NCBI GenBank assembly: GCA_041441465.1
Contig: JASDSY010000010.1
Coordinates: forward strand, 105,883-169,882
Source: Candidatus Wallbacteria bacterium
GTDB lineage: Bacteria > Muiribacteriota > UBA9980
Direction: 5' to 3'
DNA: 64,000 nucleotides
Part shown: positions 5,055 to 64,000 of the stretch, piece by piece
How the letters are laid out: every line of letters begins with the position of its first letter
How positions within the stretch are numbered: the first letter of the stretch is position 1
Position numbers and translations under genes: made by a program
The notes under the pieces: generated by a model
Told to the model about the DNA's origin: nothing
What the model saw: the letters and a program-made list of their open reading frames with translations, nothing else
The model's database searches: none

Positions 5055-5082
5055 ACGGCCTTTTAACAGGCCGTTTTTTTTA
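5055..5082 (+). terminator. intrinsic terminator after the carbamate kinase gene
   Basis: stem acggcct / aggccgt with loop tttaac, followed by an 8-T run. Confidence 0.7.
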
Positions 5083-5123
5083 TTTATAGATACACCATTA
5101 ATAGTTTGATCATTTTCTATGAT

Positions 5124-5411: not shown

Positions 5412-5444
5412 AGGATGGGTGGGGGTTTCAAGGAATTGTCAAAA

Positions 5445-5520
5445 AAGATTTTTTCGGGACCGCGTTCGAAAATCCTTCCGGGATTTTCGCCGCTTCCGAG
5501 ATGTCCCTGCAAAAATCTTT
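5445..5520 (+). repeat. structured intergenic element, copy A (second copy at 59611-59730)
   Basis: shares with copy B the blocks ttttttc-(g/a)ggg, hairpin aaaatcc-(t/a)tccg-ggatttt, ccgct and ccctgcaaaaat; closing helix gggac/gtccc. Confidence 0.5.
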
Positions 5521-5626
5521 TTTGACTCTAATATACATTCAATTTTTTAAAAGGTGTTTTATGAAATAAACTTTTTGATTAGCCTCTGACAAAAAAATTA
5601 AAAATGCGATGTTTTTTTTAAATATA

Positions 5627-5635
5627 TGTTATAAT
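5627..5635 (+). promoter_or_regulatory. extended -10 promoter element TGtTATAAT upstream of the 5674 gene
   Basis: tgttataat about 39 nt upstream of the ATG; RBS aaggag at 5661-5666. Confidence 0.35.
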
Positions 5636-5673
5636 TTACCTGGAAAACATTTTAAATTTAAGGAGCATTTTTA

Positions 5674-6324: not shown

Positions 6325-6436
6325 ATTCCGCTCCGTGAATTTATAGTTACTTCATAATCACAGCAAAATAGCATAATTTCGAAATATAAAAACGATATTA
6401 TCTTAAAATAATTTAAGCATTATAAGAGGTAATAAT

Positions 6437-8615: not shown

Positions 8616-8644
8616 TTGACGAACATTGTCATTTTTTATATAAT
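8616..8644 (+). promoter_or_regulatory. consensus sigma70-type promoter TTGACG-N17-TATAAT for paralog 1
   Basis: -35 ttgacg 8616-8621, 17-nt spacer, -10 tataat 8639-8644; ggagg RBS at 8663-8667, ATG at 8677. Confidence 0.6.
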
Positions 8645-8676
8645 AGATGCAATTTAAAAATCTGGAGGCATAATCA

Positions 8677-9177
8677 ATGGATTTTATAAAAAAAAGAACT
8701 AAAAATATATTAATAAGCATCATTGCGTTTTTACTTGTAAGTCCGGGTTTTATCGCCGATTATTTGTTTGCGCAAAATAATTTAGTCAATGAAAAAACGG
8801 AAGAAGTAAAGGCAAATAAAATGCCGCTGCCGGAACCGCCGGTTTACGGAATGCCGCCGACGCGTTTTGATCATAACATGCCGGGCCGCAATATTTCGGT
8901 TATAAGCGCCAGGCCGAAAGTCAAAAAGAGCTTTTCAGGAATAATAGTATCCGCCGGCTCAGAAACACCTCTTCCAGGAATGATATTAGAAATACAACAG
9001 CTCAACTCCAGGACAATTACGAGTAAAACCGGAGCTTTCAAATTTCAGGAGCTTTACGCCGAAAAAGATTCGGATAAATTTATCATGACAATAACCAACT
9101 CAGAAGACAGAAGCATTTGCCGGACGATGGAAATAGAGTTAACTAAAAGCGGCAGTACTATTGAAGTTTCATTATAA
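8677..9177 (+). CDS. small secreted protein, paralog 1, with C-terminal carboxypeptidase-regulatory-like beta-sandwich motif
   Basis: 166 aa; signal peptide KNILISIIAFLLVSPGF; C-terminal GIIVSAGSETPLPGMILEI...TGAFKF pattern; ends KSGSTIEVSL. Confidence 0.6.
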   Translation: MDFIKKRTKNILISIIAFLLVSPGFIADYLFAQNNLVNEKTEEVKANKMPLPEPPVYGMPPTRFDHNMPGRNISVISARPKVKKSFSGIIVSAGSETPLPGMILEIQQLNSRTITSKTGAFKFQELYAEKDSDKFIMTITNSEDRSICRTMEIELTKSGSTIEVSL

Positions 9178-9223
9178 TATCAGAATTCAAGTATTTTTAA
9201 TTAAATTGAAAACAATAAAAATA

Positions 9224-9252
9224 TTGACTGACACCGATAATTGTAATATAAT
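9224..9252 (+). promoter_or_regulatory. consensus sigma70-type promoter TTGACT-N17-TATAAT for paralog 2
   Basis: -35 ttgact 9224-9229, 17-nt spacer, -10 tataat 9247-9252; ggagg RBS at 9284-9288. Confidence 0.6.
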
Positions 9253-9293
9253 GATTTTTAAAACAAAGCATTATGAAAAATTCGGAGGAAATC

Positions 9294-9749
9294 ATGATAG
9301 AATTTATAAAGATAAAAGCTAAAAATATGTTAATAAGCATTATAGCGTTTTTACTTGTAAGCCCGTGTTTACTGACCGATTATTTATTCGCCGGCGATTC
9401 GGCTTTAAAGGAAAAAGTAAATATGGCAAACGAAGATATGGCAGCCACTAAATATGGCGGCCCGGCAATGAATTTTGACGAAGATATAATATTGGAAAAA
9501 CTTGTAGAATTATTCGGCGTGGTTACATCAAAGGAAACGAAAAAACCTGTCGAAGGCATTATTATAAAAATCCAGGATTCAAAAGCAAAAGCTGTAACCG
9601 GTAAAGACGGCATGTTTAAATTCCCTCCATGCCCGCCCAGATTAAAAAAAGTTACACTGGAAGTAAAAGACGCCAAAGACGAAAAACTTCTGCAGACCAA
9701 AGAAGTGGAGCTTAAAAATGCCGGCTCTACAATCGAAATTTCACTTTAA
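9294..9749 (+). CDS. small secreted protein, paralog 2 (start moved to RBS-supported ATG)
   Basis: ORF track starts at 9273, but ggagg sits 6 nt upstream of the ATG at 9294, giving MIEFIKIKAKNMLISIIAFLLVSP parallel to paralog 1; ends NAGSTIEISL. Confidence 0.6.
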   Translation: MIEFIKIKAKNMLISIIAFLLVSPCLLTDYLFAGDSALKEKVNMANEDMAATKYGGPAMNFDEDIILEKLVELFGVVTSKETKKPVEGIIIKIQDSKAKAVTGKDGMFKFPPCPPRLKKVTLEVKDAKDEKLLQTKEVELKNAGSTIEISL

Positions 9750-9887
9750 TCCCAAATAATTAAATAAATAATAATACTTCATAAAAGTTATTTTTTAATA
9801 AATATTCCACATTATCAAAATTAATGAAAATTTAAAAACGGCTGTTTCATTACAAAAAATTTATAAATACAAACATCATAATAAAAT

Positions 9888-9924
9888 AAAAATCCGCCCG
9901 GTAAAAATTTCGAGCGGATTTTTA
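9888..9924. terminator. bidirectional terminator hairpin between convergent genes
   Basis: 10-bp stem aaaaatccgc / gcggattttt with A-run before and T-run after. Confidence 0.55.
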
Positions 9925-10002
9925 TTTTTATTCAACCCTAAAATATAACAGACGAATAAGGTATTTTCAGGTTAATACAGAAATATTTTTATTTCCTATT
10001 TC

Positions 10003-11418
10003 CTATTTCTTATTTTCTATAATGCCGTATGCCGCTTTTATAATATCATTGAGCCTGTCCGGAAATACTTTATATAGTTTTTTAGGCTCGTCGCATTTGA
10101 CATAATTAGCTTTATCGAAATCCCGCGGAATAATGAACATCGCTTCGTCTGTGCCGCCTGAAAACGTGCCAAGCCTTATTTCCATTGTCGCAGGAGAAAA
10201 TTTAGAGAGCAATTCGGCATTAGTGGTGTCGCGGTCTATAGACTGCAGCATGCAATTAGCTATAAGCTGAGTCAAATTTTCAACTTTCGCCTTATCTATT
10301 ACCGCCTCTAAAGTCGAATCGCCGACACGAGTTATTTTCCAGTCGCTATTCGTCTTTTTTACCTCGACCGATACGGTGCCGGCCGGAATAAGTCTGACGC
10401 TGTTAACTTCCGAAGCCGCAAAATCATTAGTCAACTTAGGCATAAAATCCATGGCCGATTTTTTTAATTCGGCCTTAAAATCCCTGTCAAGCATAAGGAT
10501 TTCTTTTTTATAATTGGATTTAACCGCTATGAGGTTTTCAGACGTGCTGTCACGGCCGACATTAATTACCGTCATTACCTCGGCGGTTGCGCCGGTACTG
10601 AGTTTTAATATTATTTCAGCCGATGTTTCGCTTACCAGATTATTTTTATACGAAGCATCGGTCTCGTCTATAATTTTTTTTGCGGAAGCGGCCTGTATTT
10701 TATTAATGATCTCGTTAATCATCTTAGTATCGCAGCGGCCGTTCTCCGGCGATTCCATGCTCCATATCCCGGCTTTATTCGTAAAAGAATATTTTTCTTC
10801 GGCCGTCGTGCCGGGATATGAAATTTCAAAATGCTTTATGTTTGCCGGAATAAAAGAAGCGATTTTTTTATCGCGGAATTCAAAAAGGTTTTTATTCGCG
10901 TCATTGTAAAGCCCCGACTCAACCAGAAATATATCTTTGCTTTCAGGAAATTTCACGTAGCATAATTCGCCGGACGGATTTTTGTTTCCATAACAAAAAG
11001 TAATTTCGGCGCTTTCAGCCTTCAAAGTAACCTTTATCTCATTGGTCCCAAAGCCGAAATCCGCCATGTTAGATATCTGATCGGCCGTAATTTTAGAATC
11101 GATTCTGGCGAGCTTGATTTTATTCGTCATTTCATTGACAGCGCTCTGATCTAAAAGCGCATCAAGCGGTTTTTCAAGCATCCATTCTTTCTTTTCGTTT
11201 TTCTTTGAAAAAACAATTTCAGTCAAAGCGCCGCCGGATTTTGTATAATCAGGCTTCTGGATTTTCAGATGAGTCAGTCCTTCAAAGTTAAAGTTAGCCG
11301 CCAATTGTGCTTTCTTGCTTTCCTCGGTTTCAACCGGCGCCTGCCTGAGATTATTCGCGTAGAACCCGAGCGCGATAAGAACAATAAGAGCGACAATAGT
11401 TTTTATATATTGATTCAT
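10003..11418 (-). CDS. DUF4340-like protein (GldG-associated)
   Basis: 471 aa; N-terminal membrane anchor IVALIVLIALGFYA; last gene of the ABC/GldG operon, the usual position for this family. Confidence 0.5.
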   Translation of the reverse strand: MNQYIKTIVALIVLIALGFYANNLRQAPVETEESKKAQLAANFNFEGLTHLKIQKPDYTKSGGALTEIVFSKKNEKKEWMLEKPLDALLDQSAVNEMTNKIKLARIDSKITADQISNMADFGFGTNEIKVTLKAESAEITFCYGNKNPSGELCYVKFPESKDIFLVESGLYNDANKNLFEFRDKKIASFIPANIKHFEISYPGTTAEEKYSFTNKAGIWSMESPENGRCDTKMINEIINKIQAASAKKIIDETDASYKNNLVSETSAEIILKLSTGATAEVMTVINVGRDSTSENLIAVKSNYKKEILMLDRDFKAELKKSAMDFMPKLTNDFAASEVNSVRLIPAGTVSVEVKKTNSDWKITRVGDSTLEAVIDKAKVENLTQLIANCMLQSIDRDTTNAELLSKFSPATMEIRLGTFSGGTDEAMFIIPRDFDKANYVKCDEPKKLYKVFPDRLNDIIKAAYGIIENKK

Positions 11419-11440
11419 AAAGTATCACTCCCGTAAAAAT

Positions 11441-13090
11441 TTATGACCTGTAATACCACACGGTAAATCCTGTCAATATAACGATACCAGGCACCAAGAG
11501 TATAACTATAAACCATACGTTATTGGCCGCTTTCTGATTGAAATCGAGCGTAAACGGCACCGGCGCCTTAGGCGTAACCGCTATGAGATCTTCGATATCG
11601 GCCAGGTAACTGAACATATTCAGCGCAAGATTAAAATTTCCCTGTAATCCTATAAATTCGTTACGCATAAAATTCGAAGTGCCGGCCGCAATAATGCGCA
11701 TTTCTTTTTGTTTGGAACGACGGCCGTTAGCGTCGGATACGATCGCGTTTTCACCGGTGCCTGAATGTATTTCAGCGTTAGCGACAGTTTTTGAAACCGC
11801 TGTTACGACAGTTATCGGCCCTTTTATATCGCGGTCAGAATCAAATTTCACGTTTTTATCGGTCAGATAAGTCGTATCAGCAAACGAGTCAGGGCTGGTC
11901 TGAACAAGCGCAGCCGCAGTCATGCCCGGCGGCATATTTTTAACGGAATTCACGGCCCTGGCAAGCGGATAAAAAGTAGCCATATTAAAACCTTTTACCA
12001 CAGGATGGTCACTGTTATAAATCATTCCGAGCGGCATGGTATAATCGCCGAGTCCGAGCATCTTCAATGCCGGTTTCATATCTATTATAATGTTTTTACC
12101 GGGCTCGATTCCGTATTTTGAAAGCAGCCTTTCCATGCTGGCCGAAGGCGCCTGCGGCGGGAAATTCACGTCAACTAAAAAGAGCGCATGACCGCCGTTA
12201 TCAAGATATTTAGAGATCATCGCTTCCTCAGTTTCCATAAGCTCAATCTGCGGTCCTGCAATTACGAGCGCGCTGCAATTGCCCGGCACTTCCTGGCGCT
12301 GAAGCAGGTTGAGTTTTTGCAGCTCGAAATTCTTGTTAGCCAATTCCTGCTTCATAAGGCTCATGCCGCGTTTATCATCCGAATTAATGTCGGCTTCGTT
12401 ATGCCCCTCAAGAAAATATATGACGTTTTTTTCCTTCGAAGTAGCCCTTATTATAGCGTTAGTCAATTCCTGCTCGCCGAAAAAATTCTCGAGTTTTTCC
12501 GTTTTGCCTTCATATTTAACGACAGTGATGCCGTCGCGAGTTATGTTAAATTCCTTGGCGAGAAGCGGTTTTTTGTTCATATCCACAAATTCATACTTGA
12601 ACTTCGGGTTGTTATATGAATACTGCTTCATAAGATCGGAAAAATGCCTTCTGACTTCAGGAATATCACGATAGAAAAGATAAACGTTGATATCGCTTTT
12701 AAGCCTCGCTATCGCCTTGACCGACTGCTCGGCCAGCGAATATCTTTTATTCGACGTCATATCCCACTGCTTCGTATCGCGCCCCGCAATAAAATTAAGA
12801 AGCACGACTATAGCTATTATAATAGCGCCATAAATCAACGCGTTAGTCGAATATTTAAATGAACGTGTCCTCATTTTATTAGCGATATAATTGAAATTAT
12901 AAATCGTGATACCGAGCGCCATGATAAGGCCGGCTGCAGCCAGGGCCGCCGGAACCGTTGTCGATTCAGCCATAAAATATCCGAAGAAACCTGAAAAAAT
13001 AAGCAGCGCGGTTAATATTTTCAAAGTTGCCATTAATTTAGTGTTGTTATCGCCGTTAGAGTTTTTTATTTCACGAATATCGTTATTCAT
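11441..13090 (-). CDS. GldG-like ABC transporter auxiliary component
   Basis: 549 aa; N- and C-terminal TM segments (C-terminal VWFIVILLVPGIVILTGF); sits between an ABC-2 permease and the DUF4340-like gene. Confidence 0.55.
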   Translation of the reverse strand: MNNDIREIKNSNGDNNTKLMATLKILTALLIFSGFFGYFMAESTTVPAALAAAGLIMALGITIYNFNYIANKMRTRSFKYSTNALIYGAIIIAIVVLLNFIAGRDTKQWDMTSNKRYSLAEQSVKAIARLKSDINVYLFYRDIPEVRRHFSDLMKQYSYNNPKFKYEFVDMNKKPLLAKEFNITRDGITVVKYEGKTEKLENFFGEQELTNAIIRATSKEKNVIYFLEGHNEADINSDDKRGMSLMKQELANKNFELQKLNLLQRQEVPGNCSALVIAGPQIELMETEEAMISKYLDNGGHALFLVDVNFPPQAPSASMERLLSKYGIEPGKNIIIDMKPALKMLGLGDYTMPLGMIYNSDHPVVKGFNMATFYPLARAVNSVKNMPPGMTAAALVQTSPDSFADTTYLTDKNVKFDSDRDIKGPITVVTAVSKTVANAEIHSGTGENAIVSDANGRRSKQKEMRIIAAGTSNFMRNEFIGLQGNFNLALNMFSYLADIEDLIAVTPKAPVPFTLDFNQKAANNVWFIVILLVPGIVILTGFTVWYYRS

Positions 13091-13093
13091 TTA

Positions 13094-13879
13094 TTACAGC
13101 CTCCATTTCGTCGATTCTAATGAAAGTGAGGTTAAGAAAAGCCCTATAAAGGTAAAACTTAAATAATACATCATATCTTTCGAGTCAATTACGCCTTTCG
13201 CGAATGTCTCAAAATGTTCCATAATCGAAATCGACTTTAAAAATTCGCCAAGAACGCCTTCTGCGCTATACGATGCCCAGCCTATCACCCAGAATAAAAG
13301 CAGTACGCCGAAGCCAAGGACTGCCGAAACCACCTGATTTTTGCTTAATGTAGAGGTGAAATTTCCGACTGCGGCAAAAGCCATACCTATAAGAAACAAT
13401 CCGAAGTATGACGTAAATAGCGGCCCTGTTTCGACATTTCCATATACGTATAAAATCGCCGGATAGGTAAAGGTAAGAGCCAGCATCAACGCAAAAACGC
13501 CGACCGACGCGAAAAATTTTCCAAGCACGATAGAAATATGAGAAACCGGAGAAGTGAGCAAAAGCTCGATAGTTCCGGTCTTAAACTCTTCCGAATATAA
13601 CCGCATTGTAAGAAGCGGCATTATAAGAAGTATGACGACGCTGGCGTTATATACAAGCGGCCTCAAAACGGCGTCGGCGATATTGATTTTCGATAATTGC
13701 TCCATCGCCTGCGGATTGCCGGATGTCTTCATGTAATTGACGTAATTTGCGAATGAAACAATGCCCATATAGAAAAAATAACCTGTCAGTATCAAATATA
13801 CGGCTATTATCATATAAGCGATTGGCGAAGTGAAAAAAAGCGACATTTCTTTTTTAAAAATCGACCATGTATTACGCAT
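13094..13879 (-). CDS. ABC-2 family permease (GldF-like)
   Basis: 261 aa polytopic membrane protein; overlaps the ATPase gene by 8 nt. Confidence 0.6.
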   Translation of the reverse strand: MRNTWSIFKKEMSLFFTSPIAYMIIAVYLILTGYFFYMGIVSFANYVNYMKTSGNPQAMEQLSKINIADAVLRPLVYNASVVILLIMPLLTMRLYSEEFKTGTIELLLTSPVSHISIVLGKFFASVGVFALMLALTFTYPAILYVYGNVETGPLFTSYFGLFLIGMAFAAVGNFTSTLSKNQVVSAVLGFGVLLLFWVIGWASYSAEGVLGEFLKSISIMEHFETFAKGVIDSKDMMYYLSFTFIGLFLTSLSLESTKWRL

Positions 13880-14831
13880 TTACCGATTCCTCCTTGGTTA
13901 TAAGCTTAAGGAAAATATCCTCGAGGGAAGTTTCCTGCGTGCGGAGCTCGTGTATGTTAAGCTTTATTTCCAAGAGCCTTGCTGCCGCAAGCGGAGCGAT
14001 TTCAAAATTAGCGGAAGTTTCAATCAATATTTTTCTGGCGTTTTTATGAATCTCATCGTTTATTATATTAACGGATTTTATTCCGGTGATAGGTTCGAGC
14101 GAAGTTTTGATTTGTTCACCTGTCGCCTCACCCGTTATCGTTATTTCCATACGTTCATCTTTCGAAACGGCTTTCGTAAGGTTTGCGGTAGCGTCTTCGG
14201 CAATTATCCGGCCGTGATTTATTATGACGACACGCGAGCATGTTATAGACACCTCAGGCAGAATATGTGTCGAAAGTATAACGGTATGGGCGTCCTTTAA
14301 ATTTTTAATAAGCGTCCTGACCTCGTTTATCTGGAGCGGATCGAGGCCTACCGTCGGTTCGTCAAGTATCAGAAGTTTTGGATTATGAACCAGCGCCTGC
14401 GCCAGTCCAACCCTTTGCTGATACCCTTTCGAAAGATGCCCTATCAACTTGCCGGCCACATTAGAAATATTTGTTTTTTCCATGGCAAGTTCAACAGCCT
14501 TATTAATTTCACGAACAGGAATGCCCTTAATTTCTCCGACGAATTTCAGGTACGAACGCACGCTCATCTCCGGATAGACCGGCGGTTTTTCCGGTAGATA
14601 ACCTATAAGGCGTTTGGCATTTATGGCGTCATCGTAAATATCGTGGCCGTCAACTTTGACAGTGCCGGCCGTCGCCGAAAGAAAACCGGTAATAATGCGC
14701 ATCGTAGTAGTTTTACCGGCGGCATTCGGCCCAAGAAAACCCATGATTTCACCCTGTTTGACATTAAACGTAACATTCGAAATCGCAGTGAAATCGCCAT
14801 AGTTTTTCGTAAGATTTTGAACTTCGATCAA
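13872..14831 (-). CDS. ABC transporter ATP-binding protein (GldA-like)
   Basis: 319 aa; Walker A GPNAAGKTT, ABC signature LSKGYQQR, Walker B LLILDEPTVGLD. Confidence 0.8.
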   Translation of the reverse strand: MIEVQNLTKNYGDFTAISNVTFNVKQGEIMGFLGPNAAGKTTTMRIITGFLSATAGTVKVDGHDIYDDAINAKRLIGYLPEKPPVYPEMSVRSYLKFVGEIKGIPVREINKAVELAMEKTNISNVAGKLIGHLSKGYQQRVGLAQALVHNPKLLILDEPTVGLDPLQINEVRTLIKNLKDAHTVILSTHILPEVSITCSRVVIINHGRIIAEDATANLTKAVSKDERMEITITGEATGEQIKTSLEPITGIKSVNIINDEIHKNARKILIETSANFEIAPLAAARLLEIKLNIHELRTQETSLEDIFLKLITKEESVNA

Positions 14832-50676: not shown

Positions 50677-53600
50677 TTATTCAGTCTTAAACTGCCACTT
50701 TAACGGCATCAATGACTGCCCTGTCGTGTTCTTTATTCCCGCATTAAGGGTTACTTCATAGCGGGTGCCGTAATTTAAAGGCTGCGCCGGCCTGAATATT
50801 AATTTTTTCATGCGCTGATTGTACAGGATTTTGCCATTAACGGTGCCTTCAGCGCCTGTTACTATAAAATTAACCCCGTTCAGCGTAGCTACATCGGCAT
50901 CCTGGCTGAACACTACAGTAATAGTGCTGTTCAACTTTATCTTTTCGGAGTTTTTATTAGGATAGATCGCCGTAATATAAAACTGCGAAGCGCTCTGTTC
51001 ATTGCCGTATGAAGTCGAAAGCTGAGGCTCGAAAGTATTGAATGTAGTCAGCTCTTTCTGTTTTCTAGCTTTTTGGATATTTTCCGGCGTTATTACTTCG
51101 TTTCTGTTGTTCTTTATAAGTCCTTCCTTTTGAGCCTGAATTATCGGATTATCCGAATTATCAGCCATTATTTCATCCACTGCCATGCCGTTTATTGTTC
51201 CTTTAGGGCCGGACGCCGGATTGGTTTCTGAAGCCGCCGCGACCATGTTGCCGTTAGCTAATCCGGAGGCAGGTTTCACAAAAGCCGCCGGTGACGCATC
51301 GGACGCTGTGGCGACGTTATCAGGAACCGCGCGGGCCACCATATTTTTTAAAGCCGCATTTTCAGCCTGTGCGTCAGGTCCGAATGCCTCATACTCGCCT
51401 GCCTGAGGCGCCGCAGAAACTGACTGGACCTGAGGCTGATCATTATTAGCCGCAACCGGTTTTACAAAATTACCGGAATCATTATTGCCTGTTCCGGCTA
51501 AAACTATGTTTTGACCCGAGGCCGTGACATTTACCAAATCCTGTTTTAAAATCGGCCCGGCCGGATTTTCTGAAAGATATGGAGCTTTAATACCAGGCTG
51601 TGCCTGAACCGCCGCAATATTAGCATCTGTTTTGGCTTGATAAGCATTTCCGGCCTGGACCGCTATATCATCTTTCAACGGCGATTCAATTAAACTGTCA
51701 ATAGAATTATTACCGGCGTATAATCCGGCCGGCTGGACTGCCGCTGAAACCTGCGCTGCCTGCGGCCTGCCGTCAATGCGGCCGCCGTTCATCGAAATCG
51801 GTTTTTTATACTGCATCGGAGTATTTTTTAACTGATCAGGCTGGCTGTTATCGCCATCCTGGATTTTTTTATCCTCGCTGCCGTATTGCTCCACTTTTTC
51901 AAGATTTATCAAATCGGCGTCATCGCCTATTAATTTAGGCTGCTGAGGTTTTTGCATCGTTTCAACCGGATTATCCGAATTAATCGAGTTTTCTTTTGAA
52001 GGCGGTTCCGACATCTGTACAAAAACCGATTTAGGGTTCCTGTATTCCTGTGCCTGCATTATACCGTCTTCTCTTGTATATTTCACATTCTGGCCGTTAA
52101 ATTTTGTCGCGACATCCTGTCTTATTTTTTCAGCTGCAGGCGATCTCTTTTCTTCTTCACTTCCTGCAATCGGAATCTTCGGAGTCATTTCTTCGGGACG
52201 CATCATTTCACGGTCAGGGTTAGGCGTAATATTATTTCCCATACCGTTGGCATAGGCATCAGCTACAGGTTCGCTGTTCGAAGGCAAAGCATCGATAGCT
52301 GCACCCATTTTAGCCTGCGCTTTGGAATCATCGGATAAAAATTTAGCTATCTGGTCCTTTAACGTTTCGGCCGCCGCGTCATCAATAACGTCCGTCTGGT
52401 CAACCGTATCTTTTATTCTTTTCGCATTCACTTTTCCATAAGCGCCCTTATCCGAAACTGAATGACGCAGTGCCATTTCATCCGGCGGAGTATCGTCAAC
52501 TATTTCAGAATTATCTATAGTGTCTTTTACGCTTTTAGCCGTGACTTTACCGTATGCGCCCTTGTCAGAAGCAGAAAGTCTGTCTTTGACATCTGCGATA
52601 GGAACTATTTGCCTTAATTTTGTTTCTTTAGGATAATTAACATTCATCTGCTGACCAATTTCACTCATAGCTTCGGCGCTTGCCGCGGTCTTCTCGCCCA
52701 TCGGCGCGATGGCCTCCGAACCCATAGCTTTTTGAACCTTAATCTGCATGCTGGCGTCTTCGCCGGCCGCTACCGATGTCACGTTTCCCTTAGTCATACC
52801 GGCAGTTTTCAAACCGCTTCCCGTTTTAAATTTCCACATCTGCGGTTCTGAAAGAGTCATGCCTTCCTTATCTTCGACAGTTTTTGCAATTGTCACATTA
52901 TAAAGCGTATTCGGCGACAATGTATTCCATGGGGTAAACGATGCCGTCGTCGTGGCGTCATCGTATGTAACCCGCCCCTGGACAGCTCTTGTTCCATCCG
53001 TCACGAAAAATGAAAAAGGCGTTATTGTACTGCCTTTCATCCTGCGGTCGAAAGTAACCGAAATCACAGGCGATAATTCTATATCGAACCCGTCTCTATC
53101 GGGTTTGAGACCTATAATCGCCGGACCTCTTCCCGACCAGCTTTTGCCTACCAGAAATTTCCATTTCTTTTCACGCTGCATATAATTACTCGATAAATCC
53201 ATTACGCCTTTTGTAACAACCGCGGTATAAGCCGCGCCCTCTTCGAGAGGCTGACGCGGAGTGAATATAGCTTTTTTCTGGGCTGAATCGTAATAAATTT
53301 TTCCGGGCACTTCCGCTTCGCTGTTTAAGACCCTGAACGTAAACGAGTTGAGTGAAAAATCTTTTATAGCTTCATCAAACGATGCGGTTATCTGCGAAGA
53401 GGCAGGCACATTGTCAGAATTATCGCGAGGCGCGACACTAATAACATTCGGGCCGGTAATATCTTTACTCATGCTCTTCGGTTCATCGAACATTTTTTTC
53501 ATGTTAGCGGAAGCGATTTGTTTCAATGTCGAAAACTCCCAGCTGTTTGGCTGGCCAAGTCTGCTGCCCTGTATGTCCTCGATTTTTTCCGAAAGCGTAA

Positions 53601-54954
53601 CCCTGTATTTACGGTTGACCTTAAGCGCCCCCGAAGGCGTATAGACCGCGGTTTTGGTTTTCTGGTTATATTCGACTTTGCCGAATATATATTCATCGCC
53701 GTCCTGCAGAGAAAAATTGAAAATATTAAATGAGGCTGGATTCATTTTTTTATTAAATTTAACTATTATTTTTTCGTCGAGATTTATCATATCAGCGCCG
53801 GGAGCAGGAAACATCTCGATAATTTCAAACTTGCCTGCTTTTCCGTCACCGGCAATTTCATCTTCCGCGACGACAGGTTCATCTTCGTCCGCGCCTGATT
53901 CACCCTTGTCTTTTTTTATTTTAGCCATTAATTTCTGTATTTTAGGATTAGCCGAAAGGCGTTCTGAAGTTTTACTAACCGCGGGTTCGTCTTCTTCAGC
54001 AGCGTTTTCATTTTCAACTGCCGCTGCAATCTTTCCTCTGGCAGCAGGATTTTTTATCTTCGAAGAAGTTTTCGCACTTTTTTTAACGCTTTCAGCGCCA
54101 CCGTCGGCCGAAATCACAGTCCCGGCAATACGGGCACTGCCGGTTTTAAAAGTATAAACATAATCACGTGACATTTTATTTTTAGAGGCATCGCATATTT
54201 CAGAGGATATTTTTACTTCATGAACCGCGTTAGGTTTCAAATTATTAAGCGGTGAAAATATAGCTTTATTTACGTCATCAAAATAGCGGATAGCGCCCGC
54301 AATTTTTTCGCGGCCGCATTTCACTGTAATAGTATTTTCATTTATAGAAGCCTCATACATTTTCTTGTTGAATATGACTTCGAGTTTAGTGTCAACCGGC
54401 ACGCCTGATGCCGAAACAGTCGGCGACACATCGGCTACGACCGGCGGATTGGAATCGACTTTTTTTACGGTCCTGAATTTCCACACTTTATCGGATGTCA
54501 TTGTCTTGCCGTTAAGGTCCCTTATGGTCCTGCTTATCGTTAAGAAATATCCGTGATCGGGCTGCAAATTTTCAAGAGGCGATACGGTCACTTTCATAAG
54601 TTCGCTGTTATAACGCACGGTAGTCGATATATCAGAAACTCCGTCATTCAACGTAACAGTAAACTCATTAATATCTTCATCCTGCATTTTTTTATTGAAT
54701 ATCGCCATGATTTTAACATCGAGCGCTACATCTTCGTCGTTATCTTCAGGCAGCGTTCTCACGACAGAAGGCGCCGCACCGCCTTCATTCGTTTCTTTTT
54801 CAGCCTGCTTTGCCTTTGCGGCAGCAAAAGCGGCACCGGTATTTAAAATATAAAAAACGAAAAAAACGGCTATAATCAAAAACACGCAGCCTGATGGCCG
54901 AAGTTTTTTTCTAACCGATGTACCGCCTTTTTCTTTTAATAATTCTGATCTCAT
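50677..54954 (-). CDS. giant secreted surface protein with multiple Ig-like (SbsA/Big-type) repeats
   Basis: 1425 aa; signal peptide; at least six recurrent repeat units of about 90-100 aa; long low-complexity Ala/Gln/Asn-rich central region. Confidence 0.6.
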   Translation of the reverse strand: MRSELLKEKGGTSVRKKLRPSGCVFLIIAVFFVFYILNTGAAFAAAKAKQAEKETNEGGAAPSVVRTLPEDNDEDVALDVKIMAIFNKKMQDEDINEFTVTLNDGVSDISTTVRYNSELMKVTVSPLENLQPDHGYFLTISRTIRDLNGKTMTSDKVWKFRTVKKVDSNPPVVADVSPTVSASGVPVDTKLEVIFNKKMYEASINENTITVKCGREKIAGAIRYFDDVNKAIFSPLNNLKPNAVHEVKISSEICDASKNKMSRDYVYTFKTGSARIAGTVISADGGAESVKKSAKTSSKIKNPAARGKIAAAVENENAAEEDEPAVSKTSERLSANPKIQKLMAKIKKDKGESGADEDEPVVAEDEIAGDGKAGKFEIIEMFPAPGADMINLDEKIIVKFNKKMNPASFNIFNFSLQDGDEYIFGKVEYNQKTKTAVYTPSGALKVNRKYRVTLSEKIEDIQGSRLGQPNSWEFSTLKQIASANMKKMFDEPKSMSKDITGPNVISVAPRDNSDNVPASSQITASFDEAIKDFSLNSFTFRVLNSEAEVPGKIYYDSAQKKAIFTPRQPLEEGAAYTAVVTKGVMDLSSNYMQREKKWKFLVGKSWSGRGPAIIGLKPDRDGFDIELSPVISVTFDRRMKGSTITPFSFFVTDGTRAVQGRVTYDDATTTASFTPWNTLSPNTLYNVTIAKTVEDKEGMTLSEPQMWKFKTGSGLKTAGMTKGNVTSVAAGEDASMQIKVQKAMGSEAIAPMGEKTAASAEAMSEIGQQMNVNYPKETKLRQIVPIADVKDRLSASDKGAYGKVTAKSVKDTIDNSEIVDDTPPDEMALRHSVSDKGAYGKVNAKRIKDTVDQTDVIDDAAAETLKDQIAKFLSDDSKAQAKMGAAIDALPSNSEPVADAYANGMGNNITPNPDREMMRPEEMTPKIPIAGSEEEKRSPAAEKIRQDVATKFNGQNVKYTREDGIMQAQEYRNPKSVFVQMSEPPSKENSINSDNPVETMQKPQQPKLIGDDADLINLEKVEQYGSEDKKIQDGDNSQPDQLKNTPMQYKKPISMNGGRIDGRPQAAQVSAAVQPAGLYAGNNSIDSLIESPLKDDIAVQAGNAYQAKTDANIAAVQAQPGIKAPYLSENPAGPILKQDLVNVTASGQNIVLAGTGNNDSGNFVKPVAANNDQPQVQSVSAAPQAGEYEAFGPDAQAENAALKNMVARAVPDNVATASDASPAAFVKPASGLANGNMVAAASETNPASGPKGTINGMAVDEIMADNSDNPIIQAQKEGLIKNNRNEVITPENIQKARKQKELTTFNTFEPQLSTSYGNEQSASQFYITAIYPNKNSEKIKLNSTITVVFSQDADVATLNGVNFIVTGAEGTVNGKILYNQRMKKLIFRPAQPLNYGTRYEVTLNAGIKNTTGQSLMPLKWQFKTE

Positions 54955-57760: not shown

Positions 57761-59602
57761 ATGTATGAAGACCCGCATAAAATCCTGCAGCAGCATTTCG
57801 GCTATTCTAAATTCAGGGATGGCCAGCAGGAAATAATTTCGGCGATTATTTCAGGGCGCGACGCTCTGGGAATAATGCCGACAGGCGCAGGAAAATCACT
57901 ATGTTTTCAAATTCCTGCGCTTATGTTCAAAGGAACCGTCATTGTTATTTCACCGCTTATTTCTCTTATGAAAGACCAGGTTGAAGCTCTCCGGCAGGCC
58001 GGGTTGCCGGCGGCATTCATTAACAGCACGCTCACGGGACGCGAACGCAAAGAAATAGAAAATGACGCTCTGGAAGGCAAGTACAAGTTAATTTACATGG
58101 CGCCGGAGCGGCTTGAAAATCCTGAATTTTTGAAATTCTTAAACGATATTTCGGTTTCAATGGTAACAGTCGATGAGGCGCACTGCGTATCGCAATGGGG
58201 CCATGATTTCCGCCCGAGTTATCTCAAAATACCCAATATGATTGAAATGTTAGCCCAAAAACCTATCATTTCAGCATTTACGGCAACCGCGACGCCTATA
58301 GTAAAAAATGATATCATGCAGCTGCTTAAGTTAAATAATCCCGTCACGGTAGTAACAGGTTTTGACCGAAAAAATTTATATTTCGAAGTGAACAAGCCTT
58401 CAAGCAAATCTGAATTCACGCTCGACTACGTCCGGAAGAATTCCGGCAAAAGCGGCATAATTTACTGCATTACGCGTAAATTAGTCGAAAGCGTATGCGA
58501 CATTTTAAATTCCAACGGCATCCCCGCCGTACGGTATCACGCAGGATTATCTCAGAAAGAAAGAAGCGAGGCGCAGGAAAAGTTCATTTTTGAAGACGCC
58601 GGAATAATCGTCGCCACTAATGCTTTCGGCATGGGTATCGATAAATCAAACGTCAGGTTCGTATTGCACTATAACATGCCTAAAAACATAGAAAGTTATT
58701 ATCAGGAAGCCGGCAGGGCCGGGCGCGACGGCGAAAAAGCAGAGTGCATATTGCTCTTTTCAGGCCAGGACATCATCATGAATAAATTTTTAATTGAAAA
58801 CAGCGACAGGGACAAAGAAAAAAGCGGAGGCGAGCGTTCCGATAAGAGCGGCGAACTGCGAAAACTTTCTCAAATGGTAGATTATTGTTCCACGACATCA
58901 TGCATAAGACGCTACGTACTGAATTATTTCGGCGAAAATCATACTTATGAAAGCTGCGGCAACTGCGGAAGCTGTTTAAGCGCCCCGGCGGAACTTACCG
59001 ACATGACCGAATGCTGCCGGAAAATACTTTCGTGCATAAAACTTATGGGCGAGCGTTTCGGCCGCACTTTCGTATCAGAGGTTTTGCGCGGCTCAAATCC
59101 CGAACGCTCCAGTGAATTCGGATTTAATAGACTTTCGGTATACGGCGCTTTAAAAGAATATTCACAGGATTTTATAAAAGACACCATCTCGGCGCTTGCG
59201 GATGCCGGATATATAAAAGTTGACAGCAGCCAGTATCAAACGCTTTCATTATCATTTAAAGCCCTTAACTCATTAAACACAGGCGAAAAAATATTAATAA
59301 AAGCCGCTGAAATTAAAAGTAAATCCAAAGCAAAGGCCAAAACTAAAACCGCGCCTCAAAGTGCCGGAGACAGCAATTTATTTGACAGGTTAAGGGCATT
59401 GCGACGCGATCTGGCTCTTAAGCAGCGAGTACCGCCTTATCTGATATTTTCAGATGCCGCATTAAACAGCATGTGCCAATTACTGCCTTCGACCGATGAA
59501 GATTTTTTAGAAGTCAACGGCGTGGGCAGGCGGAAGCTTGAACAATACGGCGAGATTTTTATGGATGAAATTAAGCAGTTTCAGGATTCAAAAAGAGGTT
59601 AG
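57761..59602 (+). CDS. recQ: ATP-dependent DNA helicase RecQ
   Basis: 613 aa; FGYSKFRDGQQEII start, Walker A MPTGAGKS, DEAH box VDEAHCVSQWGHDFRP, Zn-binding Cys cluster, C-terminal HRDC-like region. Confidence 0.85.
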   Translation: MYEDPHKILQQHFGYSKFRDGQQEIISAIISGRDALGIMPTGAGKSLCFQIPALMFKGTVIVISPLISLMKDQVEALRQAGLPAAFINSTLTGRERKEIENDALEGKYKLIYMAPERLENPEFLKFLNDISVSMVTVDEAHCVSQWGHDFRPSYLKIPNMIEMLAQKPIISAFTATATPIVKNDIMQLLKLNNPVTVVTGFDRKNLYFEVNKPSSKSEFTLDYVRKNSGKSGIIYCITRKLVESVCDILNSNGIPAVRYHAGLSQKERSEAQEKFIFEDAGIIVATNAFGMGIDKSNVRFVLHYNMPKNIESYYQEAGRAGRDGEKAECILLFSGQDIIMNKFLIENSDRDKEKSGGERSDKSGELRKLSQMVDYCSTTSCIRRYVLNYFGENHTYESCGNCGSCLSAPAELTDMTECCRKILSCIKLMGERFGRTFVSEVLRGSNPERSSEFGFNRLSVYGALKEYSQDFIKDTISALADAGYIKVDSSQYQTLSLSFKALNSLNTGEKILIKAAEIKSKSKAKAKTKTAPQSAGDSNLFDRLRALRRDLALKQRVPPYLIFSDAALNSMCQLLPSTDEDFLEVNGVGRRKLEQYGEIFMDEIKQFQDSKRG

Positions 59603-59730: not shown

Positions 59731-60075
59731 GTCACACTGTTAAATATTCCGAAAAATAATTCACTTATCATCACTATTTCCACCTAAAGAATAAACTTTG
59801 TCTATCGTTATAATTTTTATCCCTAAAACGAACTTGTGAAAAATGTGGGTTCGCAATTGTTCCAGATTTAGAATGATAAATAAATTTATGCTAATATGAA
59901 GGATTAAGCAAAAGCCCCGCTGCCCGTTCTATTTCAATACTCTCTTATTCTCATCTCGCCGGGCGTTCGCAGAGCTTCGAAAAATAACATTAAATTATCA
60001 TAAACAATATAAACGCTACCATATCAACATTTTTTAAAAATCGATATTTTTTTATTTCAAATTTTAAAAAAATTG

Positions 60076-60084
60076 TGATATAAT
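60076..60084 (+). promoter_or_regulatory. extended -10 promoter element TGaTATAAT upstream of the PLD-SNF2 gene
   Basis: tgatataat 25 nt upstream of the ATG at 60109; RBS aaggag. Confidence 0.35.
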
Positions 60085-60108
60085 TTTTTTCAAGAAAAAG
60101 GAGCCTAT

Positions 60109-63100
60109 ATGCCTAAAATCTATGACAATATAGAAAATCAACTAACACGCGGATTAAACGAAACGCTTGAATTATCCAATAGAGCGGACTTTTGCGTTGG
60201 TTACTTCAATCTTAGAGGCTGGAAAGAAGTCGCAGAAAAGATTGAAAAACTTACCGGTTCTGAAATTCTTGAAGGAAAAAATGATGTTCACCGAATTTGT
60301 CGATTATTGGTCGGCATGCAAAAATTACCCGTTGATATACTACGTGAACATTTCGGCCAGGACGAAAATTACATAATTGACAACGCAGAAGCGGTTAAAA
60401 TCAGGAAACGATTAGCGCAAGAATTCAAAGATCAATTAACGATAGGCACACCTTCCGAATCTGATGAAAAAGCGTTACGTCTTCTAAGCAAACAAATGAA
60501 AGAAAACAAAGTAACCGTTAAGTTACACTTGCGTTATACGCTTCATGCTAAACTATATCTGGCTTACAGCGACGATAAACGCGTTCCCATAGTTGGTTTC
60601 CTTGGAAGCAGTAATCTTACGTTGGCCGGACTTGCCAGACAGGGTGAGCTAAATATTGATGTTATGGATCAGGACGCCGCCGGAAAGCTTGCCAAATGGT
60701 TTGACGACCGCTGGAGTGATCGGTGGTGTCTCGATATTACACAGGAACTTATTGAAATTATCGATAACAGTTGGGCCGCTGATAGGATTGTATCTCCGTA
60801 TCATATTTATCTGAAAATAGCATATCATCTTTCACGAGAAGCACGTGCAGGCATTAATGAATTTAAATTGCCTAAAGTTTTTCAAAGAGAATTACTTGAA
60901 TTTCAACAAAAAGCCGTTCTTGTTGCGGCACATCACCTTCATAAAAGGGGCGGCGTATTAATTGGCGATGTGGTTGGACTTGGAAAAACAATAACAGCTA
61001 CCGCGCTTGCAAAATTATTCGAAGATGATTTTTTTCTTGAAACGCTTATAATTTGTCCCAAAAATCTCGTTCCGATGTGGGAAGAATATGCTCACAAATA
61101 TCAAATTAGGGCTAAAATAATATCACAAAGTAAAGTTCAGAGTCTGCTTCCTAACATGAGACGATACAGACTTGTAATTATAGATGAAAGCCATAATCTT
61201 AGAAATGACGAAGGAAGTCGCTATCGCGCAATCAAATCATACCTTGAAGAAAATGAAAGCAAGGTTATTTTGCTATCTGCAACGCCATATAACAAATCAT
61301 ACCTTGATTTATCAAATCAACTGCGTCTTTTCATATCAGATGACAAAGATTTAGGAATAAGTCCTGAAAGATATATTGATGAAATTGGAGGACAGATTCA
61401 ATTTGGCGCAAAGCACACTGAAACGTTTATACGAAGCATTAAAGCATTTGAGAAAAGTCATTTTTCAGATGATTGGCGCGAACTTATGCGTTTATATTTA
61501 GTTAGACGTACAAGAAGCTTTATAAAAAACAACTACGCCGCAACCGATCCAGAAAATAATAGAAAGTATTTAACTTTCGCCGATGGCACTAAATCATATT
61601 TTCCCGACAGGCTTCCTCGAAGGGTTGAATATGCTTTTAATCCAGATGATCCCAAAGATCAATATGCCAAATTATATTCGCCTGAAATAGTTGACATAGT
61701 TAATTCACTAGAATTACCAAGATATGGATTGGGTAACTTTTTAACTCCCAATCCGATTATAAAACCTGACAAAAACGAAGAAGTAATAATTGAAAATCTT
61801 TCGCGAGCCGGAAAACGATTAATGGGTTTTTGTCGTACAAATCTTTTTAAAAGACTTGAAAGCAGCGGATATTCATTTCTTGTTTCACTTTGCCGTCATA
61901 TTTTACGCAATTATATTTTTATATTCGCGCTTCAGAATAAACTGCCAATTCCAATTGGAAATAATATATCGCAAAATTTAGATGAATTTCTCGAAGACAG
62001 CGATACTGACAACGACACCAGAGAAGAAAGGCAATTTAATTTTATACTTGACGAAAATGAATATTTAAAAAAAGCGGAAAATGTATATTACTCTATGTTA
62101 AATGAAAAGAACCGTTATGACTGGATAAAAAGTGAACTATTTATTTCATCACTTCAAAAAAAGCTAATTGACGATAGCCGTGAAATAATTAAAATATTAA
62201 AAAAGGGCTATAATTGGGCCCCTGAAGAAGACAGACAATTAAACGCGCTTCATCAACTTATTGCTAATACTCATGGCAATGAAAAGGTCCTTGTTTTCAC
62301 TCAGTTTGCCGATACCGCAAATTATCTTACAGACAATTTGAAAAAAAGAGGCGTCAAAAAAATCGAATGTGTAACCGGCGATTGTGAAAATCCAACACAT
62401 TTAGCGCATCGTTTCAGCCCAAGAAGCAATGGCAATAATGAAATAGCCAACACTTCCGACGAATTAAAAGTGCTTATTACAACTGATGTATTGAGCGAAG
62501 GGCAAAACTTGCAAGACGGCCACATAATTTTAAATTACGACCTTCCGTGGGCAATTATTCGTTTAATACAACGTGCGGGGCGTGTTGACCGAATAGGCCA
62601 GAAATCAGATAAAATAATTTGCTATTCATTTTTTCCAGAAGACGGCATCGAGCAAATAATTAACCTCAGAAGCAGGCTAAGAACACGCATTGAACAAAAC
62701 GCCGAAGTTGTCGGCTCGGATGAAACATTTTTCGACGGCGATCCTGTCAATCTTGAAGATTTATATAACGAACGTTCAGGAATTTTAGACGATGATGATG
62801 ACGACGGCGAAGTTGACCTTGCATCTTACGCTTATCAAATCTGGAAAAACGCTACCGACGCCGATCCATCGTTAAACAAAAAAATACCGGATTTGCCGAA
62901 TGTTATTTATTCAACTAAACAGAACAACAATAAGCCTGAAACCGAAGGTGTTATTTTATATACGCGAACTACGGATGAAAATGATGTATTGACATGGATT
63001 GATAAAAATGGAAAAATCATAACACAATCACAGCTGACTATTTTAAAAGCCGCTCAATGTCCTCCGGATGTGAAGGCTTTTTATAAAATAGAAAATCACC

Positions 63101-63474
63101 ACGACCTTGTAAAAAAAGGAATTGACTACATTCGCGAAGAAGAAAAAAATACTGGAACGTCATTGGGCAAAAAGACGGGTGTAAAGTATAGAGTTTATAT
63201 GCGTCTGGACAGATATTGCAAAGAAAACGAAGATACGCTATTCGTAACCGAGGAACTAAAGAAAGCCATTAATGACATTTATAAATTTCCGATGAAAGAA
63301 TTTGCGCGTGATACACTTAACAGACAATTGAAAGCCGGAATTTCTGATGAAATGCTTGCCGGGCTCGTTGTTTCACTGCGCGAAGATGATAAGCTGGTAA
63401 TAGTTAATGAAGATGAGATGCCAAACAGGCTTCCTCAAATTATTTGTTCACTTGGACTTAAAAATGGAGAATGA
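60109..63474 (+). CDS. PLD-like (HKD-type) nuclease domain fused to SNF2/DEXH-family helicase
   Basis: 1121 aa; N-terminal HKD-like segment HAKLYLAYSDD...GSSNLT; helicase motif I GDVVGLGKTITA, motif II LVIIDESHNLRN, helicase C motifs TDVLSEGQNLQD and QRAGRVDRIGQ. Confidence 0.8.
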   Translation: MPKIYDNIENQLTRGLNETLELSNRADFCVGYFNLRGWKEVAEKIEKLTGSEILEGKNDVHRICRLLVGMQKLPVDILREHFGQDENYIIDNAEAVKIRKRLAQEFKDQLTIGTPSESDEKALRLLSKQMKENKVTVKLHLRYTLHAKLYLAYSDDKRVPIVGFLGSSNLTLAGLARQGELNIDVMDQDAAGKLAKWFDDRWSDRWCLDITQELIEIIDNSWAADRIVSPYHIYLKIAYHLSREARAGINEFKLPKVFQRELLEFQQKAVLVAAHHLHKRGGVLIGDVVGLGKTITATALAKLFEDDFFLETLIICPKNLVPMWEEYAHKYQIRAKIISQSKVQSLLPNMRRYRLVIIDESHNLRNDEGSRYRAIKSYLEENESKVILLSATPYNKSYLDLSNQLRLFISDDKDLGISPERYIDEIGGQIQFGAKHTETFIRSIKAFEKSHFSDDWRELMRLYLVRRTRSFIKNNYAATDPENNRKYLTFADGTKSYFPDRLPRRVEYAFNPDDPKDQYAKLYSPEIVDIVNSLELPRYGLGNFLTPNPIIKPDKNEEVIIENLSRAGKRLMGFCRTNLFKRLESSGYSFLVSLCRHILRNYIFIFALQNKLPIPIGNNISQNLDEFLEDSDTDNDTREERQFNFILDENEYLKKAENVYYSMLNEKNRYDWIKSELFISSLQKKLIDDSREIIKILKKGYNWAPEEDRQLNALHQLIANTHGNEKVLVFTQFADTANYLTDNLKKRGVKKIECVTGDCENPTHLAHRFSPRSNGNNEIANTSDELKVLITTDVLSEGQNLQDGHIILNYDLPWAIIRLIQRAGRVDRIGQKSDKIICYSFFPEDGIEQIINLRSRLRTRIEQNAEVVGSDETFFDGDPVNLEDLYNERSGILDDDDDDGEVDLASYAYQIWKNATDADPSLNKKIPDLPNVIYSTKQNNNKPETEGVILYTRTTDENDVLTWIDKNGKIITQSQLTILKAAQCPPDVKAFYKIENHHDLVKKGIDYIREEEKNTGTSLGKKTGVKYRVYMRLDRYCKENEDTLFVTEELKKAINDIYKFPMKEFARDTLNRQLKAGISDEMLAGLVVSLREDDKLVIVNEDEMPNRLPQIICSLGLKNGE

Positions 63475-63476
63475 TA

Positions 63477-64000
63477 ATGGCAATTTCTAAAAATGAATTT
63501 TCACAATATATAAAAAAATTTGATTTTCGCGGATTATTCAACGAAATGGGATGGAATAACGACGATAAAAAATTTGCAATATCTTTACCCAAGAAAAATA
63601 CGTTTGTTTTATATACTGTAGGTGAAAAAAGCGGATTTAAAATATTCGTATGCAGCCCCACATCGGAAGGGAAAATCCCGGACTTTTCAATAAGAAGAAA
63701 AATCGAAACTGAAGTTACAAAACTTTTTCAAGAGCATCTTATTATTTTTCACGACACTAAAAAGCATGAGCAAGTGTGGCAATTGGTTGTCAGACAATCA
63801 GGCCAGCCGGCGAAAGTTACTGAAACACGCTACAACGTCAAACAGGACCCGGAACTTTTATATCAAAGAGCATCAGGCATTTTCTTCGAACTCGATGAAG
63901 AGGAAAAAATAACTATTGTTGATGTTACAAAAAGAGTCGCCGAAAATTTCAATCAAAATAATGAAAAAGTAACAAAACAATTTTATGACAAATTTAAAAA
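63477..64000 (+). CDS. 5'-partial ORF running off the window end; function unassigned
   Basis: ATG 3 nt after the helicase stop with ggag RBS; open for at least 174 codons (MAISKNEFSQYIKKFDFRGLFNEMGWNN...) with no stop before position 64000. Confidence 0.55.
   Translation, partial: MAISKNEFSQYIKKFDFRGLFNEMGWNNDDKKFAISLPKKNTFVLYTVGEKSGFKIFVCSPTSEGKIPDFSIRRKIETEVTKLFQEHLIIFHDTKKHEQVWQLVVRQSGQPAKVTETRYNVKQDPELLYQRASGIFFELDEEEKITIVDVTKRVAENFNQNNEKVTKQFYDKFK

Follow-up and report, generated by a model that had tools for sequence, protein, structure and literature searches.

What is a gene that joins a nuclease domain to a helicase core doing beside a second gene that runs off the end of the available sequence? 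The pair lies at the right end of a 64,000-nucleotide (nt) stretch of Candidatus Wallbacteria DNA (contig JASDSY010000010.1, assembly GCA_041441465.1; the window). Its first gene, at 60109 to 63474 on the + strand, encodes an 1121-amino-acid (aa) protein with an HKD motif of the phospholipase D (PLD) family and an SNF2-type motor (HKD-SNF2), and its second gene encodes a putative DNA methyltransferase. Our analysis suggests that the locus is probably the beginning (5' part) of a defense operon that spreads horizontally and acts as an ATP-dependent restriction-modification-like system, resembling a Type ISP enzyme that is split over two genes and that uses a PLD nuclease.

An initial annotation, made from the letters of the window, had described an HKD-like PLD domain and a complete SNF2 core within one open reading frame (ORF), and domain models bear this out. 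The ORF, with an ATG start, passes the curated Pfam cut-offs for PLDc_2 (31.2 bits; cut-off, 27), SNF2-rel_dom (47.2 bits; cut-off, 24.9), Helicase_C (58.8 bits; cut-off, 23.5), and ResIII, passes the cut-off of the RE_NgoFVII PLD model (25.5 bits; cut-off, 23.8), and matches the PADLOC "HKD+Snf2" model C3a139 (E = 8e-52). Its length of 1121 aa together with matches to four Pfam families rules out a chance feature. The PLD-family nuclease domain, recognized by PLDc_2 and RE_NgoFVII and containing one HKD motif, is N-terminal (aa 1 to ~235; 60109 to 60813, + strand). The motifs quoted in the annotation are located at aa 146 to 156 (HAKLYLAYSDD; 60544 to 60576) and aa 166 to 170 (GSSNL; 60604 to 60618), giving HKD residues H146, K148, D156, G166-S-S-N169, and E180. 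This is the HxK(x)nD...GSxN pattern of the PLD superfamily in a PLD-like domain, with a spacing of HxK-x7-D where x4 is canonical. Across 76 homologues, L-H146-A-K148-L-Y-L, D156, G166-S-S-N-L-T, and Q-G-E180 are invariant, and the HKD residues are equally invariant in 24 diverse homologues; the catalytic His and Lys, whose loss would have spoken against a defense-type module, are among them. A scan of the whole protein found one HxK and one GSxN per chain.

The motor that follows is an SNF2-type SF2 ATPase/translocase core (aa ~262 to 885; 60892 to 62763, + strand), identified by SNF2-rel_dom, ResIII, Helicase_C, and the motifs GLGKT (aa 290 to 294), DESH (aa 359 to 362), SATP (aa 390 to 393), and QRAGRVDRIGQ (aa 821 to 831). 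Its two lobes are separated by a long insertion. Motifs I, II, III, and VI are invariant in the 76 homologues and, with the N-terminal lobe and Helicase_C, place the protein among SNF2-family translocases. Sequence searches of the PDB matched it to generic SNF2/DEAD cores only, of the RapA/ISWI type, and a profile of the HKD domain gave chance-level matches only, with no solved PLD nuclease among them.

The second ORF had been described as tightly coupled to the first, with its own ribosome-binding site, and open at the window end, and the details agree. The helicase stop codon, TGA at 63472 to 63474, is followed after a 2-nt spacer by an ATG at 63477, and a GGAG ribosome-binding site for the partner can be read within the end of the helicase ORF (63466 to 63469, + strand). 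The two genes are thus tightly translationally coupled. Because methyltransferase homologues start with MA(I/L)(S/T)K, the ATG at 63477 is preferred over an in-frame ATG at 63471. The window contains the first 174 codons of the partner (63477 to 64000, + strand), which encode a family-specific N-terminal domain, and the ORF is still open at 64000.

The initial annotation had expected either that the rest of the module lies past 64000 or that the arrangement is none of the described systems. An exact look-up of the 1121-aa protein retrieved a 14.5-kb Logan contig, L001, that overlaps the window by 4,327 nt with zero mismatches (L001 position = window position - 59673; window positions past 64000 are extrapolated). 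It carries the remainder of the methyltransferase gene, followed by YhcG and by what remains of a DprA-like gene. The complete partner has 1086 aa (L001 3804 to 7064; end at extrapolated window position 66737). The REBASE-derived PADLOC model REase_MTase_IIG matches the window fragment with E = 4.6e-24 and the full protein, end to end, with E = 1.7e-292, and in Pfam the full partner exceeds the cut-offs for Eco57I (86 bits) and MmeI_Mtase (35 bits), with a weak MmeI_hel match. Motif I (DPTCGSGAF) and motif IV (NPPY) are conserved among the homologues and, together with the preceding helical spacer, correspond to the gamma class of N6-adenine methyltransferases. By these sequence features the partner is an MmeI/Eco57I-type gamma-N6-adenine methyltransferase. 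The loose resemblance to MmeI-type enzymes remarked on earlier therefore holds at the family level, and the partner is not the unrelated metabolic gene that would have undercut a defense role.

The partner's N-terminal domain (aa 1 to ~150) departs from the MmeI family, in which this region is a PD-(D/E)xK domain with a catalytic D...ExK. No conserved D...(D/E)xK was present in 28 or 56 aligned sequences: position 50 varies among E, Q, A, R, and H, and position 69 among D, P, L, E, and K. The near-invariant residues are instead F21, G25, W26, K51, P68, R73, E86, H87, and W101. The Pfam scan found no match to the MmeI N-terminal domain, and PDB sequence searches returned nothing for the full methyltransferase or for a family profile of its N-terminal domain. 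An AlphaFold2 (AF2) model of the domain reached a pLDDT (predicted local distance difference test) score of 81; Foldseek found nothing significant with it, and its likeness to the DrdV fold is weak. Throughout the best 150 of 1517 representative clusters, the domain sits at the extreme N terminus of proteins of ~1050 to 1340 aa at full length. The lack of a conserved nuclease motif here suggests that cleavage is apparently delegated to the HKD-SNF2 partner.

A candidate docking site for the methyltransferase is the helicase's C-terminal region (aa ~886 to 1121, ~235 residues; 62764 to 63471, + strand), which is moderately conserved in the family and is covered by no Pfam or PADLOC model. An AF2 model of the C-terminal 251 residues was unusable (pLDDT, 52) because the alignment was too shallow, consisting of sequences at least ~70% identical to the query.

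The window helicase has >8000 database relatives. The best 120, which span Bacteroidota, Acidobacteriota, WOR-3, Wallbacteria, and other phyla, are 74 to 100% identical to it, with 75 to 80% identity across phyla. At least 573 species-representative genomes carry a homologue, and synteny was compared in 80 loci drawn from many phyla. The methyltransferase gene lies immediately 3' of the helicase gene, on the same strand, in 75 of the 80; the five exceptions are three contig ends, one IS200-like transposase after the helicase, and one ambiguous case. Genes that intervene between the two are small and of mobile type: KilA-N-like genes, YhcG, HicAB/VapBC/RelE-type pairs, and a transposase. By sequence inspection, three Bacteroidota loci (L002, L004, and L005 [~13340 to 14280]) have a 270- to 290-aa protein of KilA-N-type appearance in this slot, and YhcG occupies it in L009, L012, and L029. 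When flanking ORFs were clustered, only three families recurred in more than seven loci, namely those of the helicase, of the methyltransferase, and of a third protein (~150 to 260 aa). Large neighbors that occur singly vary (Lhr, RecD-like, AddA-like, GmrSD, a peptidase, a P-type ATPase), with no DUF499 or DrmA/B among them. Module homologues are carried by 106 plasmid records; no phage-borne full-length copies were found.

The third recurrent protein is DprA-like. It matches the Rossmann core of PF02481 and the PADLOC PsyrA model (E = 1e-11 to 3e-22), and ShosA weakly; a true DprA it is not, since TIGR00732 gives 42 bits against a cut-off of 191 and only the Rossmann core matches. Its gene is present in 40 of the 50 loci that extend at least 1 kb 3' of the methyltransferase gene, is always co-oriented, and has its start at -25 nt to +5.4 kb relative to the stop of the methyltransferase gene. 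Both companions diverge along with the helicase (DprA-like protein, rho = 0.79, Mantel p = 0.001; methyltransferase, rho = 0.75). Between the methyltransferase and DprA-like genes we found a varied cargo: an OLD-family ATPase with UvrD (Gabija-like), DarT with Macro, Schlafen/AlbA_2, DUF4062, AAA_21 with DUF4276, and YhcG. The Gabija-like pair sits in this interval in L017 and L021. The contents of the interval mark it as an insertion hotspot for defense genes, with YhcG as cargo. Taken together, the 75 to 80% helicase identity across phyla, the plasmid occurrence, the differing flanks, and the inserted defense cargo indicate that the module moves horizontally.

In the Wallbacteria genome itself the module spans ~8 kb, from ~59910 to 67964, with a GC content below that of its flanks. 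The methyltransferase stop is overlapped by 4 nt by a gene for a 345-aa YhcG/DUF1016 PD-(D/E)xK protein, which also matches the PADLOC candidate model PDC-S02. Directly after it lies what is left of the DprA-like gene, a frameshifted stub of ~60 codons (L001 8109 to 8298; extrapolated window 67782 to 67971), and past the module L001 encodes unrelated secreted and repeat proteins. A relative with a 96% identical helicase, L082, shows the order helicase, methyltransferase, YhcG, an intact 156-aa DprA-like gene, GajA, and GajB. The two contigs share ~90% DNA identity from L001 ~303 to 8291, and the similarity stops inside the DprA-like gene. The Gabija pair of L082, at 8638 to 12139 right after the DprA-like gene, is complete (GajA, E = 3e-159; GajB, E = 2e-190).

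The stub, and the end inside it of the similarity to the intact gene of L082, would fit a module that is a decaying, non-functional relic in this genome. We regard this as somewhat unlikely: the helicase, methyltransferase, and YhcG ORFs are intact at full length with all conserved motifs, and plasmid copies exist that have no DprA-like gene altogether.

Part of the methyltransferase may have changed recently. Its segment at aa ~800 to 1040 is hypervariable (~25% column identity) and, while no recognition-domain model matched it, is consistent with a C-terminal recognition domain. The sole break in the L001/L082 alignment, L001 6078 to 6883 (extrapolated window 65751 to 66556), falls inside this segment, and its GC content is ~0.25, compared with ~0.37 in the surrounding DNA. 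The break looks like a recent replacement of the recognition domain from a lower-GC source. L001 contains no phase-variation shufflon; the repeats in it are short, imperfect, and AT-rich. Two other loci, L006 and L061, encode the methyltransferase in two ORFs, one long and one short, and in L061 extra ORFs separate the pieces. Such genes may be disrupted, or they may show the invertible-cassette arrangement that Milman et al. described (PMC9881135).

A related locus is on plasmid pSYSX of Synechocystis 6803, where an HKD-SNF2 gene with intact motifs (SGL_RS01585) is followed by a VapBC pair and then by slr6050. Along its entire length, Slr6050 shares 44% identity with the window methyltransferase. 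Hagemann et al. tentatively assigned it the asymmetric site GA(m6)AGGC, saw weak HSDR_N similarity in it, reported it as essential for viability, and could not obtain full segregation of its deletion; the helicase neighbor is nowhere mentioned (PMC6105098). Resistance of slr6050 to deletion fits self-restriction by a cognate restriction activity. Directly 3' of slr6050, on the opposite strand, this locus (L084, 16924 to 19545) also has a ThiF/E2/multiubiquitin/DUF6527 cluster, a bacterial ubiquitin-like, defense-type module, with a helix-turn-helix and ImmA/IrrE pair next to it. Elsewhere, Milman et al. list Cj0031-like "Type II R-M" genes beside a PLD+SNF gene or a DUF1016 gene, without comment (PMC9881135). 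In the literature we found neither a name for the triad of HKD-SNF2, Type IIG-like methyltransferase, and DprA-like protein nor an experiment on it as a system, and public annotations call such loci "Type IIG R-M" plus an unexplained "helicase-related protein." The parts are known; their arrangement occurs widely, has drawn incidental notice, and bears only generic annotations.

Could the pair serve host physiology instead, as an orphan epigenetic methyltransferase with an SNF2 remodeler or repair factor? In the window genome recQ is adjacent (57761 to 59602, outside the module), and the initial annotation had called it housekeeping, correctly so: it passes the TIGR01389 equivalog (754 bits; cut-off, 640) and has RQC and HRDC domains. 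The reported essentiality of Slr6050 (PMC6105098), the changes in gene expression that accompany phase variation of Cj0031 (PMC4889913), and the DprA-like third gene, from a family tied to recombination, would also suit such a role. However, recQ is not conserved as a neighbor in the 80 loci; the module is patchy across phyla yet highly identical, and it is plasmid-borne; the putative recognition domain is hypervariable and looks swapped between close relatives; and the nuclease motif is invariant, and the operon has taken up defense cargo and toxin-antitoxin genes. A non-defense role is therefore very unlikely. The view that the pair is a defense-type module, first taken from the window, gains from these same observations, and a conserved housekeeping pair in fixed core context, which would have contradicted it, is not what the genomes show.

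As a restriction-modification-like defense operon, the module could work as follows. The methyltransferase would recognize a short asymmetric sequence and modify the host's DNA, providing both specificity and self-protection; its N-terminal domain may be a degenerate version of an endonuclease-like fold. Translocation and cleavage would fall to the HKD-SNF2 protein, each chain of which has one HKD half-site. In PLD-family nucleases such as Nuc, BfiI, and SauUSI, two HKD motifs make up a single active site. By analogy with these enzymes, two motor subunits, each with its single HKD, would have to pair to cut. They might form a preexisting dimer, or they might meet by collision after ATP-driven translocation from unmethylated sites, in the manner of Type I and Type ISP systems. 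The DprA-like protein may bind single-stranded DNA or regulate, by analogy with the PsyrA and ShosA antitoxins.

This division of labor has a direct competitor: the methyltransferase could be a self-sufficient Type IIG/IIL enzyme, its N-terminal domain doing the cutting as in MmeI, DrdV, and Cj0031. In that case the HKD-SNF2 protein would be an accessory or an effector in its own right, e.g., one that degrades DNA processively once the first cut is made, or a distinct enzyme of Type IV-like character. The end-to-end PADLOC Type IIG match and the weak HSDR_N similarity in Slr6050 (PMC6105098) are compatible with such an enzyme, as are the several near-invariant polar residues of the N-terminal domain. 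Opposed to it are the variable positions 50 and 69 where a D...(D/E)xK should be conserved, the lack of a significant match in the Pfam, PDB sequence, and Foldseek searches, and a helicase that is an obligate, coupled, co-diverging neighbor with an invariant nuclease motif of its own. We consider the self-sufficient enzyme unlikely.

Several points nonetheless weigh against the restriction-modification-like reading proposed here. Residues K51, R73, E86, H87, and W101 of the methyltransferase could form a non-canonical nuclease site. Cj0031 stands alone as a phage-restricting enzyme (PMC4889913), so that the methyltransferase may itself bear a nuclease. A Rosetta-stone search found no fusion of helicase and methyltransferase among the best 150 of 1517 clusters. 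The "essentiality" of Slr6050 may have other causes, and its specificity was assigned by elimination only. The DprA-like gene is missing from the pSYSX and Pelobacter plasmid copies and, as it is also decayed here, is not strictly required.

Two features go beyond the initial annotation, the partner N-terminal domain without a conserved nuclease motif and the recurrent DprA-like third gene, decayed here. A broader and more tentative proposal, toward which we lean slightly less than evenly, is that the module may be a separate and very widespread kind of ATP-dependent restriction-modification system in which a Type IIG-derived methyltransferase/recognition protein gave up its nuclease and recruits an HKD-SNF2 motor that cuts only on the meeting of two such motors, the DprA-like protein gates or assists, and the operon is a docking site for defense genes (Gabija, DarTG, YhcG). 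If the division of labor is true, thousands of predicted Type IIG enzymes would be the subunits for modification and specificity in motor-nuclease systems of two or three proteins, and REBASE-type predictions would be read differently. The apparent "essentiality" of Synechocystis Slr6050 would be explained, a PLD-nuclease version would join the Type I, ISP, and III translocating restriction enzymes, and the module would offer a tractable case of a defense operon as an insertion hotspot.

The upstream region gives an approximate left edge of the mobile module at 59910 to 59976, where DNA similarity to L082 starts by blastn: an 80% block at L001 237 to 318 and unbroken ~90% identity from L001 303. 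The spacer 5' of the helicase gene is AT-rich and has a rather GC-rich patch (59910 to 59991) that is ~80% kept in L082 but shifted between the two relatives (L001 237 to 318; L082 99 to 183). The patch may serve in regulation, or it may form one end of the mobile module. A consensus scan found an extended -10 promoter-like site (TTCAAA-17 nt-TG-n-TATAAT; 60056 to 60084, + strand) 25 nt before the helicase start; with 10 of 12 consensus matches plus the TG, it is a consensus match only. A Shine-Dalgarno-like AAGGAG before the helicase ATG was read from the sequence (60098 to 60103, + strand). We rejected the upstream recQ as a PsyrT-like toxin partner for the DprA-like gene, as it encodes a full RecQ and is not a conserved neighbor. 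No tRNA genes that could mark an integration site occur in the window. Farther upstream, 50677 to 54954 (- strand) encodes a secreted protein of 1425 aa in which Big_5 (bacterial Ig-like) domains are repeated; it is unrelated to the module.

How does this arrangement compare with systems that already have names? It might be a fragment or degenerate form of Class 1 DISARM, a Type-2 BREX-related or Hma system, Zorya, or Pbe, and partial PADLOC/NCBIfam similarity to DrmD (2e-36), BrxH, HmaA, PbeA, and DrmMI points that way. Class 1 DISARM has an SNF2 helicase (DrmD), a Type IIG-like methyltransferase (DrmMI), and, in some cases, a PLD protein (DrmC), whereas in the window PLD domain and helicase form one protein. 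The window helicase stays far below the DrmD equivalogs (NF038317, 132 bits compared with 610; NF038318, 85 compared with 950). The initial annotation had seen none of the DrmA/DrmB or ZorAB partners that named systems would require, and the longer locus changes nothing: DrmA/DrmB (DUF1998) are absent upstream, downstream, and among the recurrent families of the 80 loci. Likewise, no MotAB-like ZorA/ZorB genes occur in the upstream 10 kb of the window or downstream, nor do they recur in the 80 loci, and the ZorD match to the helicase is limited to aa 245 to 331.

Type-2 BREX-related systems come closer, as they pair an HKD endoDNase-Swi2/Snf2 effector with an N6-methyltransferase (Rakesh & Krishnan 2026, PMC12839542). 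An HKD domain N-terminal to a Swi2/Snf2 helicase, beside an N6-methyltransferase, is found here too, and in both cases other defense genes insert into the operon. The HmaA match to the window helicase is partial (aa 562 to 833). These systems are, however, defined by a DUF499 AAA+ ATPase and DUF3780 (PMC12839542), which are absent from L001 and L082 and correspond to no recurrent family in the 80 loci. CxC-ABC/DndE are also absent downstream, upstream in the window, and among the recurrent families. With their core genes missing, membership in DISARM, Hma/BREX-related, Zorya, or Pbe was rejected, and the locus as a fragment of any of them is extremely unlikely.

Other likenesses concern single parts. 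The third gene encodes a short DprA-like Rossmann protein, like the antitoxins PsyrA and ShosA of PsyrTA and ShosTA, but neither a PsyrT nor a ShosT toxin is present, and only the DprA-like core is matched. SauUSI and the ATP-dependent enzymes CglI/NgoAVII also combine a PLD-family nuclease with an SF2 ATP motor, and the RE_NgoFVII model matches the window protein. SauUSI, a Type IV enzyme, lacks a methyltransferase and uses a recognition domain of its own to read modified DNA. The window system does have a methyltransferase, and its HKD-SNF2 protein has no sequence match to solved PLD nucleases. According to one report (10.1101/2025.10.16.682607), SauUSI is a dimeric enzyme with an N-terminal PLD domain fused to a helicase. 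The partner, for its part, resembles the Type IIG (IIL) enzymes MmeI, DrdV, and Cj0031 in its Eco57I/MmeI_Mtase domain, weak helical spacer, and C-terminal variable segment; it differs from MmeI-type enzymes in an N-terminal domain without D...ExK and in the HKD-SNF2 gene that almost always precedes it.

The whole resembles Type ISP (LlaGI, LlaBIII), in which a nuclease, an SF2 ATP motor, a gamma-N6-adenine methyltransferase, and a recognition domain form one functional unit. Type ISP enzymes are single polypeptides with an Mrr-like PD-QxK nuclease; here there are two genes and two polypeptides, an HKD/PLD nuclease, an SNF2-type motor, and frequently a DprA-like gene. The likeness is one of function, as read from sequence, and does not make the locus a member of Type ISP. 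Type ISP enzymes recognize asymmetric sites and cleave after translocation and collision (PMC3874165), and their asymmetric sites parallel the tentative asymmetric site of Slr6050, the homologue of the window methyltransferase.

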